Origin: a virus
Taxonomy: Duplodnaviria; Heunggongvirae; Uroviricota; Caudoviricetes
Reading direction: 5' to 3' (one strand)
DNA length: 8,713 bases
IMG/VR virus record: IMGVR_UViG_2675903578_000007
Part shown: positions 87 to 6,877 of the stretch, in pieces
Layout: every line of letters starts with the position of its first letter
Position numbering within the stretch: position 1 is the first letter of the stretch
Position numbers and translations under genes: made by a program
Notes under the pieces: model-generated
Seen by the model: only the letters and a program-made list of their open reading frames with translations
The model's database searches: none
What the model was told of the DNA's origin: nothing

Positions 87-302
87 ATGTATCAGATGGA
101 AAAAATATCAACAGGCATTGCCTACGGCACCTCCGCCGGCAGTGCCGGCTACTGGTTTTTGCAGTGGTTGGATCAGGTCAGTCCATCACAGTGGGCTGCG
201 ATTGGTGTGCTGGGAAGTCTGCTTCTGGGGCTTCTGACTTATCTGACAAATCTGTATTTCAAAATAAGAGAAGACAAGCGTAAGGCTGCGAGAGGTGAAT
301 AA
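87..302 (+). CDS. S: Class II holin, phage 21 S21-like pinholin (71 aa) with dual-start motif
   Basis: 71-aa [74 protein letters not shown]. It has a Gly/Ala-rich weakly hydrophobic first helix, a second hydrophobic helix and a basic C-terminal tail, near-identical as recalled to phage 21 S21. Met codons at 1 and 4 (87 and 96) form a dual-start motif. Stop TAA at 300-302 overlaps the next ATG (TAATG). Confidence 0.93.
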
Positions 303-1260: not shown

Positions 1261-1611
1261 ATGCCATCACTAATCCCACGTGCCTGCCGTAAGCGTGGAT
1301 GTGCAGGTACAACCACAGACAGTTCGGGTTACTGCGATAAACATCGCGGTGAAGGCTGGGTGCAGCACCAGCGCGGACTGAGCCGCCACCAGCGTGGCTA
1401 TGGCTCAAAATGGACGGTGATTCGTGCCCGTATTCTGAAGCGCGATAAAGGTCTGTGTCAGTTGTGTCTGCGTGTCGGTGTGGTGAGCGAGGCGAAAACC
1501 GTCGACCACATCATCCCGAAAGCGCATGGCGGAACAGACGCAGACAGCAACCTGCAGAGTCTGTGCTGGCCCTGCCATAAAGCGAAAACAGCGCGCGAAC
1601 GAATCCGGTGA
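1261..1611 (+). CDS. HNH endonuclease (phage HNH, zinc-binding; HK97 gp74-like position after the lysis cassette)
   Basis: 116-aa ORF with ATG 1261 preceded by GAGGT. N-terminal Cys cluster CRKRGCAGTTTDSSGYCDKH and an HNH core DHIIPKAHGGTDADSNLQSLCWPCHKAKTARE. Stop TGA 1609-1611. Confidence 0.9.
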   Translation: MPSLIPRACRKRGCAGTTTDSSGYCDKHRGEGWVQHQRGLSRHQRGYGSKWTVIRARILKRDKGLCQLCLRVGVVSEAKTVDHIIPKAHGGTDADSNLQSLCWPCHKAKTARERIR

Positions 1612-1901: not shown

Positions 1902-2084
1902 AAATGCCCTGTGCCATCCTCAGCCGAAACCTCCAGCGCCTCCGGCATGGGCAATGATGCCACCGTCGAACTCTCTCCAGTTGCTGGACGAAACGTTCTC
2001 GGTATCCGGGACGGAATCATCAGCGACCAGACAGCATTGAGAATGCTTCAGGAGTACATCAGGATCCAATGCCTTGGGGGGTAG
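1902..2084 (+). CDS. Second Rz-family i-spanin (divergent paralog), visible C-terminal part; N-terminus masked
   Basis: Visible translation ...SSAETSSASGMGNDATVELSPVAGRNVLGIRDGIISDQTALRMLQEYIRIQCLGG aligns without gaps to the first Rz C-terminus with 19 of 52 identical residues, including ASG, QEYIR and QC. Stop TAG 2082-2084. A strong SD-like GGGAGGGG at 1630-1637 just before the mask suggests a start near 1650, giving about 145 aa (inference). Confidence 0.7.
   Translation, partial: KCPVPSSAETSSASGMGNDATVELSPVAGRNVLGIRDGIISDQTALRMLQEYIRIQCLGG
1903..2040 (+). CDS. Second Rz1-like o-spanin, embedded in the +1 frame of the second Rz (visible C-terminal part)
   Basis: +1 frame translation NALCHPQPKPPAPPAWAMMPPSNSLQLLDETFSVSGTESSATRQH with stop TGA 2038-2040. 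The proline-rich PPAPPAW.M.PP core matches the [11 protein letters not shown] core of Rz1. Lying wholly inside the Rz-like ORF mirrors the lambda Rz/Rz1 arrangement. Confidence 0.6.
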   Translation, partial: NALCHPQPKPPAPPAWAMMPPSNSLQLLDETFSVSGTESSATRQH

Positions 2085-2172
2085 CGGTAATTTTACTCAT
2101 TATCCTTCAAATCAGATTCTGTTGTCAGAGGAATGGGGGAAGCTGGATTCGCAAGAGCTTTTTATGGGCAGT

Positions 2173-2682
2173 TTAGCTAAAAAAAGGCAACACGAAGCTA
2201 AAACTACCAACATAAAGTGCTGACCAGCTAGCAGCTGAAATCAGACTCACTGTATACACTTTCACTGGATGAAGTTGCAACATTCCTGCCACCAAAGGAG
2301 CAATATAACGCAGCACGGCGATAAAGCGCGAAGTGAAAAGTATTGACACAGAGTTATTTTGCAACTGAAGGCGAACCCGTTCTATTGTATTGGAACGGCT
2401 TGATATTATACATGCAAGTTGAGGGATATGCCCAATTATTATACCAAGATGGTAATTAACGATAGTACCGCACCATGCGCCACTCATGACCGTGATTCCA
2501 GCTTCCCATGGTGAAAGAGTCGTCTTGCTGACTGTAATTACAGTGGCCATCATAATTGATGCTGGTGGCAATATCGCCGAAATGAGTAAAGTGGATTTTG
2601 TGAACGCTATTATAAAAAGAAGCCCCCATAGGCGATATGGATGAAGTACAAAATAGTTCATCAAAGCATTTATCCACTCCAT
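2173..2682 (-). CDS. DedA/YqaA-like (TVP38/SNARE-associated superfamily) inner-membrane protein; prophage moron on the opposite strand
   Basis: 169-aa minus-strand ORF (ATG at 2682, stop at 2173-2175) with an AAGGAAAG ribosome-binding site upstream on the minus strand. It is predicted polytopic, and its segments LLISAILPPASIMMATV, GAWCGTIVNYHLGI and RFIAVLRYIAPLVAGMLQL resemble YqaA/DedA motifs as recalled. The gene and flanks are visibly AT-richer than the neighbouring late genes and read against them. Confidence 0.65.
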   Translation of the reverse strand: MEWINALMNYFVLHPYRLWGLLFIIAFTKSTLLISAILPPASIMMATVITVSKTTLSPWEAGITVMSGAWCGTIVNYHLGIIIGHIPQLACIISSRSNTIERVRLQLQNNSVSILFTSRFIAVLRYIAPLVAGMLQLHPVKVYTVSLISAASWSALYVGSFSFVLPFFS

Positions 2683-2879
2683 CAATGTCTTTCCTTCTGT
2701 GAATTTTTCTTTGCTATTTAACCGTGATACGACTTAATTTAGGCTTAAACACCTTACATTTACAAGGTACTCCTGTGGGGGGCCCTGCCACGGAGCGTCG
2801 CAGGAGTGAGTGATGAGGAAGAATTAAAGCAACCTATTGTGACAGGCAGCGATAACAGTAAATCACAGGAAGCATAATC

Positions 2880-3644
2880 ATGGCAAAACCGGACTGGGAG
2901 GCCATCGAATCGGCATACCGGGCCGGAGTCCTTAGCCTCCGTGATATAGGCGAGAAATACGGCGTTACAGAAGGGGCTATCAGGAAGAGGGCCAAAAAGC
3001 TTGGTTGGGCACGCAGTGGCGGTACGCAGGTTTGCAAAAATGGTACGCAAAAAAGGAAAGTGCGTACCAGCAGAAAGCCTGCCATTACTGGCCTTACACA
3101 AAAAAGTACGCAACTAAAAACAGAATCTACACCGGATACGAAACCGATACGCGGAATGCGTACCGATCCCCCGACTAACCCATTCCAACCCGGTAACCAG
3201 CAGGCATTAAAACACGGTGGTTATGCCCGTCGCCTTCTGCTCAAAGATGAGGTGATAGAGGACGCTAAAGCGTTGACGCTCGAGGACGAATTATTTCGCC
3301 TTCGTGCTAACAACCTTGTCGCTGCAGAGAATATTGGTCGGTGGTTGGTGTCGCTGGAAGATGCTAATGGGGACCAGGAAAGGAAGATGCTGATTGAAAA
3401 TATCAGCGCCGCCGAGAAAGCAATGATGCGCAATACAGTTCGTATTGAGTCCATCGTTGGCACGCTTGCGACGGTAGGAAAAATATTTGCTGATACAGCC
3501 TACCGCAAGGCCGCCACTGATAAGGTGTCTCTGGAGGCTGATCGTCTTCGCCGTGATGCAGGTATTGATGATGGCAATGGAGAGCGTGACCTCAATGACT
3601 TCTACTCTGACATCCAAACCGACGCTGAATCCGGCTTTACGTAG
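2880..3644 (+). CDS. Terminase small subunit (N-terminal HTH DNA-binding domain)
   Basis: 254-aa ORF with ATG 2880 preceded by AGGAAG. N-terminus MAKPDWEAIESAYRAGVLSLRDIGEKYGVTEGAIRKRAKKLGW is the typical HTH start of phage small terminases; it sits directly upstream of the large terminase. Stop TAG 3642-3644. Confidence 0.88.
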   Translation: MAKPDWEAIESAYRAGVLSLRDIGEKYGVTEGAIRKRAKKLGWARSGGTQVCKNGTQKRKVRTSRKPAITGLTQKSTQLKTESTPDTKPIRGMRTDPPTNPFQPGNQQALKHGGYARRLLLKDEVIEDAKALTLEDELFRLRANNLVAAENIGRWLVSLEDANGDQERKMLIENISAAEKAMMRNTVRIESIVGTLATVGKIFADTAYRKAATDKVSLEADRLRRDAGIDDGNGERDLNDFYSDIQTDAESGFT

Positions 3645-3654
3645 TTTCTGGACT

Positions 3655-4998
3655 ATGCGGGCACGTAACAAAGTGCTTTATGGTGGTCGGTCATCGTCAA
3701 AATCATGGGATGCCGCTGGCATTGCCATATTTCTGTCGAATAAATACACCCTGCGTTTTTGTTGTGCCCGTCAGATCCAGAATAAAATCGAAGAGTCGGT
3801 GTATACCCTGCTCAAAATTCAGATAGACAGGTTTGGTCTGCGGCACCGTTTCCGTATTCTGAACAACAAAATCATTAACCGGGTTACTGGCTCGGAATTT
3901 GTTTTTTATGGATTATGGCGCAACATCGAAGAAATTAAGTCACTGGAGGGGATCGATGTGTTGTGGCTGGAAGAAGCCCACGCACTGACGGAATACCAGT
4001 GGAAAATTCTGGAGCCAACGATCCGTAAAGAGGGTTCGGAATGCTGGTTCATATTCAACCCCGGACTTGTTACTGATTTCGTCTGGCGCAACTTCGTTGT
4101 TGATCCGCCCGAAGGCACTCTCATCCGCAAAATTAACTATGACGAAAATCCGTTTCTGTCTGACACCATGCTTAAGGTTATCGACGCGGCGCGACGCCGT
4201 GATCCGGATGGTTTTAAACATGTGTATGAGGGCGTTCCGGAGTCTGATGATGATGCGGCAATCATCAAACTGTCTTGGATAGAAGCCGCAGTGGATGCGC
4301 ACAAAACGTTAAATTTCGAACCCAGTGGAAGAAAGCGTATTGGCTTTGACGTGGCTGACAGTGGTACAGATAAGTGCGCTAACGTTTACCGTCACGGATC
4401 CGTTGTTTTCTGGGCCGACGAATGGAAGGCCAAAGAAGATGAATTACTGAAGAGCTGCCAGCGTACTTATCAGGCGGCGCTGGAGCGTGAAGCAGATATT
4501 GTTTACGACTCTATCGGTGTTGGTGCGTCTGCCGGTGCTAAATTCTCTGAAATTAACGCTGACCGGAAGAGCGAGAACGCATACGCGCGACGTGTGAATT
4601 ACCAGAGGTTTAACGCCGGTGCTGGTGTGCATGAGCCAGATGACGAGTACAACGGCATCCCCAACAAAGACTTTTTCGCAAATCTTAAGGCTCAGGCATG
4701 GTGGCTGGTGGCTGACCGTTTCAGAAATACGTTTAACGCCATTAACAACGGAGAACAGTATCCTGTGGATGAGCTGATCAGCATAGATTCTCGTTGTCCG
4801 TTGCTTGAAAAGCTGAAACTGGAACTGACAACACCTCATCGTGATTTCGACCGTAACGGACGTGTGATGGTCGAAAGTAAAAAAGACCTCGCAAAACGCG
4901 AGATACCGTCACCAAACGTTGCTGATGCATTCATTATGGCCTTCGCGCCAATCGATACATCGCTGGATATCTGGGAACAGCTGGGGAGACAGGCCTGA
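3655..4998 (+). CDS. Terminase large subunit (ATPase/nuclease, PBSX/T4-like family)
   Basis: Long ORF with Walker A-like YGGRSSSKSWDAAG and Walker B-like VLWLEEAH motifs near the N-terminus and a C-terminal nuclease-like region. Start chosen at the first ATG after the small-subunit stop (3655); the tool start at 3487 would overlap the small subunit by 158 nt. Stop TGA 4996-4998 overlaps the next ATG. Confidence 0.9.
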   Translation: MRARNKVLYGGRSSSKSWDAAGIAIFLSNKYTLRFCCARQIQNKIEESVYTLLKIQIDRFGLRHRFRILNNKIINRVTGSEFVFYGLWRNIEEIKSLEGIDVLWLEEAHALTEYQWKILEPTIRKEGSECWFIFNPGLVTDFVWRNFVVDPPEGTLIRKINYDENPFLSDTMLKVIDAARRRDPDGFKHVYEGVPESDDDAAIIKLSWIEAAVDAHKTLNFEPSGRKRIGFDVADSGTDKCANVYRHGSVVFWADEWKAKEDELLKSCQRTYQAALEREADIVYDSIGVGASAGAKFSEINADRKSENAYARRVNYQRFNAGAGVHEPDDEYNGIPNKDFFANLKAQAWWLVADRFRNTFNAINNGEQYPVDELISIDSRCPLLEKLKLELTTPHRDFDRNGRVMVESKKDLAKREIPSPNVADAFIMAFAPIDTSLDIWEQLGRQA

Positions 4999-5984
4999 TG
5001 GCACGAAACAAACAAGCCCTGCGGCGAACTGTGCAGGCCACAGCTGATGGTTATGAGAATTTTATTGCCCGCGTAGGGATGCAGACACCTAACCAGCACT
5101 CAGCATCCACCTACCGGGCTAATTTCACCAGTCGTAACCGCATGCTGGTGGAATGGTCCTATCGTTCATCCTAGATCATCGGCGAAGCAGTCGATGCTAT
5201 CCCGGATGATATGACCCGCAAAGGCATTCGCATCACTTCGGAAATTGATGCAAAAGATCGTGGCATTCTCGAATCACAACTGGATGAGTTGCAAATCTGG
5301 GATGCGCTGAATGACGTGCTGAAATGGTCGCGCCTCTACGGCGGCGCGGTGGGTTTCATCATGATTGAGGGGTAGGCACCAATGACCCCGCTGCGACCCG
5401 AAACCATCGGTAAGGGCAAGTTTAAGGGGATTCTCCCGCTCGACCGCTGGATGGTCGACCCGGCACTGACCCGCCGCATTAAAGATATGGGGCCGGACCT
5501 GGGTAAACCTGAGTTTTACGATGTGGTGACCACAGCAACGGGAATTCCTGCCTGGCGCATTCATCACAGTCGCCTGATTCGCTTTGATGGCGTCACGTTG
5601 CCATTTCAGCAGAAGATGACCGAGAACGAATGGGGAATGTCGGTTGTAGAGCGTATCTGGGATCGTCTTACCGCGTTCGACAGCGCTACTGTCGGCGCGG
5701 CGCAGCTGGTCTACAAGGCGCATTTGCGTACCTACAGCGTGGAGAAGCTACGCGAGCTTATCGCACTTGGTGGTCCTGCGTATGAAGCGTTGCTGAAGAA
5801 TATCGACCTGATTCGACAGTTCCAGAGTAATGAAGGCATGACGCTCATGGACTCGCGGGATAAGTTTGAAACCCATCAGTACAGCTTCAGTGGTCTGGAT
5901 GACATCCTTTCGCAGTTTGTAGAACAGATTAGTGGCGCTGTTGGTATCCCACTGGTGCGGTTGTTCGGACAGTCCCCGAAAGGA
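4998..5984 (+). pseudogene. Portal protein (DUF1073/HI1409-like family), interrupted by two in-frame TAG codons; C-terminus masked
   Basis: One reading frame gives MARNKQALRR...LVEWSYRSS-TAG(5172-5174)-IIGEAVDAIPDDMTRKGIRI...WSRLYGGAVGFIMIEG-TAG(5373-5375)-APMTPLRPETIGKGKFKGILPLDRW... and stays open to the mask at 5985. Both stops were checked codon by codon, and the flanking segments look coding in the same frame. Position after the large terminase and before the MuF-like gene fits a portal. Confidence 0.8.
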
Positions 5985-6241
5985 NNNNNNNNNNNNNNNN
6001 NNNNNNNNNNNNNNNNNNNNNNNNNNNNNNNNNNNNNNNNNNNNNNNNNNNNNNNNNNNNNNNNNNNNNNNNNNNNNNNNNNNNNNNNNNNNNNNNNNNN
6101 NNNNNNNNNNNNNNNNNNNNNNNNNNNNNNNNNNNNNNNNNNNNNNNNNNNNNNNNNNNNNNNNNNNNNNNNNNNNNNNNNNNNNNNNNNNNNNNNNNNN
6201 NNNNNNNNNNNNNNNNNNNNNNNNNNNNNNNNNNNNNNNAC

Positions 6242-6874
6242 AGTATCACGGAAATTATTGCGGCGCTGGAGCGTTACAGTGAAATCATCACCCCCTGGGC
6301 GACAAAGGTCGCGGAAAACTTTACTGCGGACCTAACCCGGCAGAACGAGAAAGTTTGGCGGCAACACAGCAAGAACATCAGTCGCGAGCTCCGCAATCTT
6401 GTGGAAAGCGCTCCTGTGGGCCAGGTGATGCAATCCATCATCGCCGAACAGGTCAAGTACATCAAATCTCTGCCTCTCGAGGCCGCAGACAGGGTGTACG
6501 ACATCCAGAACAAAGCGATAGAGGCTGTTGTCACCGGTGGTCGGGCGGAGCAGTTTGCTAAAGAGATTGCATCTACCGGCGATGTTGCTAAGTCTAGGGC
6601 CGATCTGATTGCCCGAACGGAACTGGGAAGAGCAACGGGCGCGCTGGATATGGCCCGAGCGATAGCTATTGGCTCGGATGGTTATATTTGGCGTACAGCC
6701 GATGATGGCGATGTCCGAGATTCCCACGATCACATGAAAGGTAAATTCGTCCGCTGGGATTCACCTCCAACTTTGGACGGCATGACCGGCCACGCGGGCG
6801 AGCTGCCAAACTGCCGCTGCTATAAAGAGATCGTGTTTGTTCGCGTTCCATTCGCAATGAAAAGGGCAGCATAA
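6242..6874 (+). CDS. Phage head morphogenesis protein (Mu F / SPP1 gp7-like); N-terminus masked
   Basis: Frame is open from the mask edge: ...SITEIIAALERYSEIITPWATKVAENF...ADLIARTELGRATGALDMARAIAIGSDGYIWRTADDGDVRDSHDHMKGKFVRWD..., a MuF-like C-terminal signature. Stop TAA 6872-6874. The tool's start at 6401 is an internal GTG. Confidence 0.85.
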   Translation, partial: SITEIIAALERYSEIITPWATKVAENFTADLTRQNEKVWRQHSKNISRELRNLVESAPVGQVMQSIIAEQVKYIKSLPLEAADRVYDIQNKAIEAVVTGGRAEQFAKEIASTGDVAKSRADLIARTELGRATGALDMARAIAIGSDGYIWRTADDGDVRDSHDHMKGKFVRWDSPPTLDGMTGHAGELPNCRCYKEIVFVRVPFAMKRAA

Positions 6875-6877
6875 CCC

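Follow-up and report, generated by a model that had tools for sequence, protein, structure and literature searches.

A portal pseudogene with two amber codons in a cryptic prophage remnant of Shigella sonnei

Portals of the Phage_portal_3 family are known from solved structures that include Pam3 (PDB 8hds), E217 gp19 (8fvh) and Pa193 gp19 (9b41). Salmonella phage SEN34, Escherichia phage vB_EcoM-689R2 and the relatives of the latter have portals of the same DUF1073 / Phage_portal_3 family. Here we consider a portal gene of this family in an 8,713-nucleotide (nt) stretch of viral DNA, IMG/VR record IMGVR_UViG_2675903578_000007, which we call the window. When two codons are restored its sequence is a full-length member of the family, and the gene order around it matches. 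Unlike the other DUF1073-family portals, the window copy is interrupted by in-frame TAG (amber) codons at codons 59 and 126, and no dodecamer subunit of ~55 kDa can be made from it. An earlier reading of the window from its letters alone (the sequence-only reading) left two explanations: either the prophage is defective or the gene is expressed with an amber suppressor transfer RNA (tRNA). We are confident that the gene is a portal pseudogene in a cryptic prophage remnant of Shigella sonnei that has been eroded by insertion sequences (IS), and that its TAGs are ordinary stops produced by plain pseudogenisation and not a sign of suppression.

The frame that starts with the ATG at 4998 has its sole internal stops at TAG 5172-5174 and TAG 5373-5375 before a mask begins at 5985. 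Our frame reading finds no further stop up to that point, so the stops are as the sequence-only reading gave them. The mask is where that reading must be corrected, since its length is not real. At 5985-6239 there are 255 N that replace 479 nt, which correspond to 5500-5978 of L005, an unmasked locus that is 100% identical to the window on either side of the mask. Because 255 N stand for 479 nt, the portal frame is not traceable across the mask inside the window. Read from L005 and the other identical unmasked loci, the full gene has 488 codons, and its only stops are codons 59 and 126 and the terminal codon 489. In window coordinates the true stop ends at 6240, and it is not the apparent TAA at 6333. 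An apparent open reading frame (ORF) at 5382-6335 that runs through the mask was rejected because it depends on the same compression. Gene finders annotate the fragment that starts at 5382 as a gene of its own. The window copy, with its stops at codons 59 and 126, is not a single uninterrupted ORF for the full subunit. It is a pseudogene of the Phage_portal_3 family and not a functional member of it.

The gene had been called a portal before any database was searched, and profiles, structures and gene order all agree. An intact homolog that differs by 3 nt covers positions 7-355 of the 357 in the PF06381 profile, with an E-value of 3e-106. The fragments in the window match positions 24-76 and 84-355 of the same profile, with an E-value of 1e-81 for the fragment of 360 codons. 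The match to TIGR01555 exceeds its cut-off. The Pam3 portal is matched with an E-value of 2e-37, and the portals 9jlf, 9l01, Pa193 and E217 with E-values of 1e-14 to 9e-23. W59 and Q126 are both conserved even in the alignment to the distant Pam3 portal. The gene belongs to a head-morphogenesis module, in which it comes directly after the large terminase gene. The portal ATG shares bases with the TGA of the terminase (ATGA, 4995-4998), and the intact relatives have the same overlap. The order of the module is large terminase, portal, Mu F-like head protein, DUF2213, cement protein and DUF2184 capsid. It must be noted that one E. coli match (H5, NZ_CP148474.1, 98.5% identical) is labelled 'anti-CBASS protein Acb1 family protein' in RefSeq, where others are labelled 'DUF1073 domain-containing protein'. 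The Acb1 label looks like an annotation artefact, since Pfam and the solved structures indicate a portal.

We compared the gene with its 80 closest loci in IMG/VR and with two E. coli prophages, L001 (FDAARGOS_944) and L002. An uninterrupted portal ORF of 488 codons is present in 77 of the 80 loci, and the 3 exceptions are S. sonnei-type contigs. L001 and L002 each have the portal as one coding sequence of 488 amino acids (aa). Codon 59 is TGG and codon 126 is CAG in every one of the 77 intact IMG/VR relatives, and also in L001 and L002. The sequence-only reading had left the ancestral residue at each site as Trp or Gln. Comparison with the intact homologs assigns Trp (TGG) to the first site and Gln (CAG) to the second, so each disabling mutation has an identified ancestral sense codon. 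The same reading took the stops to be point nonsense changes and not frameshifts or gene boundaries. The homologs bear this out, for they carry one continuous 488-aa ORF and not three small genes that are normally separate. In-frame TAG is not conserved among the functional relatives but is limited to the S. sonnei remnant.

The S. sonnei portal differs from its nearest relatives (L017, L020 and L022) at 3 positions in 1467 nt, and all three are G:C>A:T transitions. They produce W59*, Q126* and A308V, none of which is seen in any of the 77 intact relatives. No lineage-specific change was found in the 500-nt flanks of the portal (2464 nt compared overall). At least 80% of the query is present in 338 of the 5426 complete E. 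coli genomes in RefSeq. The TAGs were not found in these genomes, where the best three matches are 99.7% identical and the one that was read (L001) has the sense codons.

An exact search with the first, 58-aa fragment led to S. sonnei chromosomes that are 100% identical to positions 1902-8713 of the window. In an index of public assemblies this 58-aa ORF, which stops at the first TAG, occurs in 2737 blocks, and the 54-aa ORF that stops at the second TAG occurs in 2758, with almost the same distribution of contig sizes. Both TAGs are clean in 8 of 10 S. sonnei chromosomes from NCBI. In the remaining two (L014 and L016) the first TAG is present and added indels, which resemble long-read errors, shift the frame. 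Every S. sonnei-type locus that is readable in frame carries both TAGs. A pattern scan of genome contigs gave no match to the exact context of the first TAG, probably because S. sonnei is not among the species representatives in that set.

One can imagine that the TAGs are a base-calling or assembly artefact of one assembly, but beyond this general possibility there are only the extra indels in the portal gene of L014 and L016. The same TAGs are shared by 4 IMG/VR contigs and at least 8 independent NCBI chromosomes, among them the finished genome of S. sonnei 53G (HE616528.1, lineage II; PMC5447701), and the resulting small ORFs are found in ~2,700 assembly blocks each. The probability of an artefact is negligible. 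The stops are widespread in S. sonnei and are not read errors, and the sequence-only reading was right to treat them as real.

The portal is not the only virion gene that this element has lost. The window leaves the intact relative at 8624, right behind the ATGA of the major capsid gene, and then enters the left end of an IS1. In the S. sonnei locus L007 this IS1 is 768 bp long (13851-14618). Past it, L007 rejoins the sequence of E. coli FDAARGOS_944 at a truncated DNA-invertase gene, which is followed by pgl and ybhD. The IS1 stands in for 19,075 bp of the intact relative (1-16061 of L113 among the loci compared). The lost stretch carried capsid and neck genes, genes of the tail tube and sheath type, the baseplate, the tail fibres and the ipaHb type III effector gene. 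ipaHb lies at the right end of the intact prophage, and its place in the lost stretch points to an ancestor that was an ipaH-carrying prophage inserted beside pgl. In the reference S. sonnei genomes an IS3-family element also interrupts the holin of the portal-bearing element, and a member of the IS110 family sits upstream of the lysis cassette. Since the capsid and tail genes are deleted, no virion is possible even with a perfect portal. The defective prophage that the sequence-only reading proposed is shown directly by the IS1 replacement and the further IS, and its suppressor alternative is left without support. Separately, a second IS1 in S. sonnei (L007 17223-17983 compared with L113 18666-21480) replaces the host genes ybhH and ybhI and the start of ybhJ, which lie just past the prophage.

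Suppression would mean that the portal is made only when a host or phage suppressor tRNA (supE- or supF-like) reads both TAGs and restores Gln, Tyr or Trp. Both stops are the same codon, the replaced Trp and Gln are each one transition from TAG, and the remaining ORF is intact, all of which is in line with such a scenario. However, an ARAGORN scan of the window detects no tRNA of any kind, and in its scan of 13 related loci of up to 20 kb no anticodon is CUA. TAG terminates three nearby genes, namely both Rz genes and a 254-aa ORF upstream of the large terminase. With the capsid and tail genes deleted, a restored portal would serve no purpose. At the two sites every intact relative has sense codons, and two ambers are the likeliest pair to arise from G:C>A:T mutation. 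We consider suppression extremely unlikely. Reassignment of TAG was also rejected, given the TAG terminators nearby and the finding that the neighbouring structural genes contain no other in-frame TAG. The earlier view that TAG is a normal stop here and that the code is not reassigned holds.

As for tRNA genes of other kinds, an intact relative has four of them upstream of its lysis cassette (L001 1016-1326), with the anticodons CAT, TCT, TGT and TCC (Met/Ile, Arg, Thr and Gly). Some S. sonnei loci keep just the CAT tRNA beside an IS (L011 2704-2777), and others keep none of the four.

It is worth considering how such a pair of stops could arise. The intact gene has 49 G:C>A:T routes to a stop codon, and 28 of them yield TAG. 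The chance that both of two nonsense hits are amber is 0.33, so it is unremarkable that both stops are. The first TAG lies inside an ancestral CCTGG (Dcm) site at 5169-5173. Dcm sites (CCWGG) are the classical amber hotspots of lacI (PMC12606429, reviewing Coulondre et al. 1978), and the CCTGG>CCTAG change behind W59* is the one expected there. Deamination of 5-methylcytosine on the bottom strand at CCTGG would give exactly this product. We infer from the site that Dcm deamination was the mechanism of W59*, which would mean that the host had Dcm activity at the time. Unlike the lacI ambers, Q126* (in GCAGG) and A308V are both outside Dcm sites.

Two kinds of observation weigh against plain decay. 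The first is the make-up of the three lineage-specific substitutions, of which two are nonsense and none is synonymous. A uniform G:C>A:T model gives P = 0.011 for two nonsense changes among three. By hand calculation P is ~0.02 if Dcm cytosines mutate tenfold faster, and ~0.06 for 2 nonsense changes among at most 7 differences over the 6.6-kb remnant. The second is that the terminase, Mu F, DUF2213 and cement genes are still intact ORFs, which means that decay by point mutation is not general. The intact neighbouring ORFs are compatible with a young clone that holds few substitutions.

The nonsense excess could instead be taken as a mark of selection (P about 0.01-0.02). Inactivation might have been selected because the portal was toxic or because a defence protein sensed it, or the 360-aa C-terminal fragment from the ATG at 5382 might have been co-opted. 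For co-option one can add that this ATG follows the second TAG with a GAGG-like motif 10 nt upstream, and that the fragment retains most of the portal domain. However, the excess rests on three mutations in a gene that was chosen for its stops. A second nonsense mutation adds nothing after the first, and one of the two stops is at a mutational hotspot. We regard selection and co-option as very unlikely. One can imagine a more specific scenario where loss of the full-length portal was selected because leaked portal triggered a portal-sensing defence or was costly, or where the 360-aa fragment would interfere with how related infecting phages assemble their portals. In the sequence this is hinted at only by the same share of nonsense, and lack of synonymous change, among the substitutions, and we find it slightly less credible again. 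We argue that the excess is mild, that the numbers are tiny and that the comparison is post hoc, as the gene was picked for its stops. It should not be taken as evidence of selection.

Plain pseudogenisation gives the following history of the element. The ancestor was a SEN34-like prophage of ~40 kb that carried myovirus-type tail genes together with an ipaH effector gene, and its remnant adjoins pgl-ybhD in the S. sonnei chromosome. Two independent G:C>A:T transitions inactivated the portal, TGG>TAG at Trp59 and CAG>TAG at Gln126. A308V, a third transition, completes the differences from the nearest intact relatives. Nothing rescues the portal and nothing needs to, as the same element lost its major capsid and all tail genes through an IS1-mediated deletion of 19 kb. 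The pseudogene is under relaxed selection, within the known IS- and mutation-driven decay of Shigella genomes, and its changes are probably neutral.

The features of the window are collected in Table 1. The 254-aa ORF has no Pfam or NCBIfam match. The Mu F-like gene, as annotated, has an unusually long overlap with the portal, whose stop comes 110 nt after the start of the Mu F-like gene and in a different frame (L001 7456-7565, equal to window 6131-6240). Its true start may be further downstream, as some gene calls give 152 aa and not 247 aa. A gene for a DedA/VTT-domain membrane protein, on the opposite strand, separates the lysis cassette from the terminase genes. It is intact both here and in the E. 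coli relative, and it looks like a cargo ('moron') gene.

Table 1. Features of the 8,713-nt window, in window coordinates
Feature	Position	Strand	Remarks
Holin	87-302		
Lysozyme	from 302		
Rz	ends 1218		
HNH endonuclease	1261-1611		
DedA/VTT-domain membrane protein gene	2173-2685	-	
254-aa ORF, presumed small terminase by position only	2880..3644	+	overlaps large terminase gene; ends TAG
Large terminase subunit (PBSX family, Terminase_3)	3595..4998	+	intact ORF
Portal pseudogene	4998..6240	+	3' 479 nt masked; PF06381 Phage_portal_3 / DUF1073
First amber codon, W59*	5172..5174	+	TGG>TAG by G>A at 5173
Second amber codon, Q126*	5373..5375	+	CAG>TAG by C>T at 5373; context GCAGG
Portal 3' fragment, 360 codons	5382..6240	+	ATG 6 nt past second TAG; GAGGGG 10 nt upstream
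Third S. sonnei-specific change, A308V	5920	+	C>T, GCA>GTA
Mu F-like head morphogenesis gene (PF04233)	6131..6874	+	start under mask
DUF2213 (Pa193 gp24-like) head gene	6878..8098	+	intact ORF
Capsid cement / minor capsid protein gene	8102..8608	+	intact ORF
Major capsid (DUF2184) remnant	8620..8623	+	ATG plus one base
IS1 left end	8624..8713	+	InsA / DDE_Tnp_IS1 domains; element 768 bp

In the reference genomes the left part of the window is not part of the portal-bearing element. Positions 1-1647 correspond there, with 99.7-100% identity, to the holin-lysozyme-Rz-HNH stretch of a different prophage remnant of S. sonnei. This other remnant is ~2 Mb away on the same chromosomes, and there a Terminase_4 small subunit comes next after the HNH gene. 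A mask at 1648-1901 hides the point where this piece meets the portal-bearing remnant, midway through the Rz gene of the latter. After the masks, the segments at 1042 and at 1902 each re-enter their own Rz gene at the same offset, 288. An IMG/VR search with the junction downstream of the HNH gene found no contig that joins the two prophage pieces. The join may reflect a genuine rearrangement between paralogous lysis cassettes, a chimeric assembly or the way in which the masks were placed. A further mask at 792-1041 has 250 N in place of 292 nt (L097 7490-7781). Since the masks are not true to length, ORFs that cross them are unreliable, for example those at 302-1156 and 5382-6335. Two positions in 1-791 differ from all the S. 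sonnei lysis-cassette copies compared (L097, L099 and L103), so none of the loci compared comes from the source strain of the window.

The practical consequence is one of annotation. A single portal pseudogene should take the place of the three small ORFs at 4998-6240; these are neither three genes nor evidence of suppression or recoding. Plain G:C>A:T mutation can produce two identical in-frame stops, here with one of them at a Dcm hotspot. Beyond correct annotation the finding matters little, as it is ordinary and of an already known kind.

Two known systems place it. The first is the laboratory amber mutants of phage morphogenesis genes, which are grown on supE or supF hosts. There too ambers in an essential head gene come from CAG or TGG by G:C>A:T change. 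The S. sonnei case differs in that it belongs to a natural clinical lineage and not to a constructed stock, no suppressor was found in the loci scanned, and the phage is without capsid and tail genes. The second is the reduction of Shigella genomes (Hawkey et al. 2020, PMC7373316), where IS insertion accounts for about half of the pseudogenes of S. sonnei and the rest involve nonsense or frameshift mutations. Here the organism is the same and so is the process, with nonsense mutation and IS insertion or deletion that are clone-wide. There is no material difference between the two, and the portal gene of the window is one specific instance of this decay.

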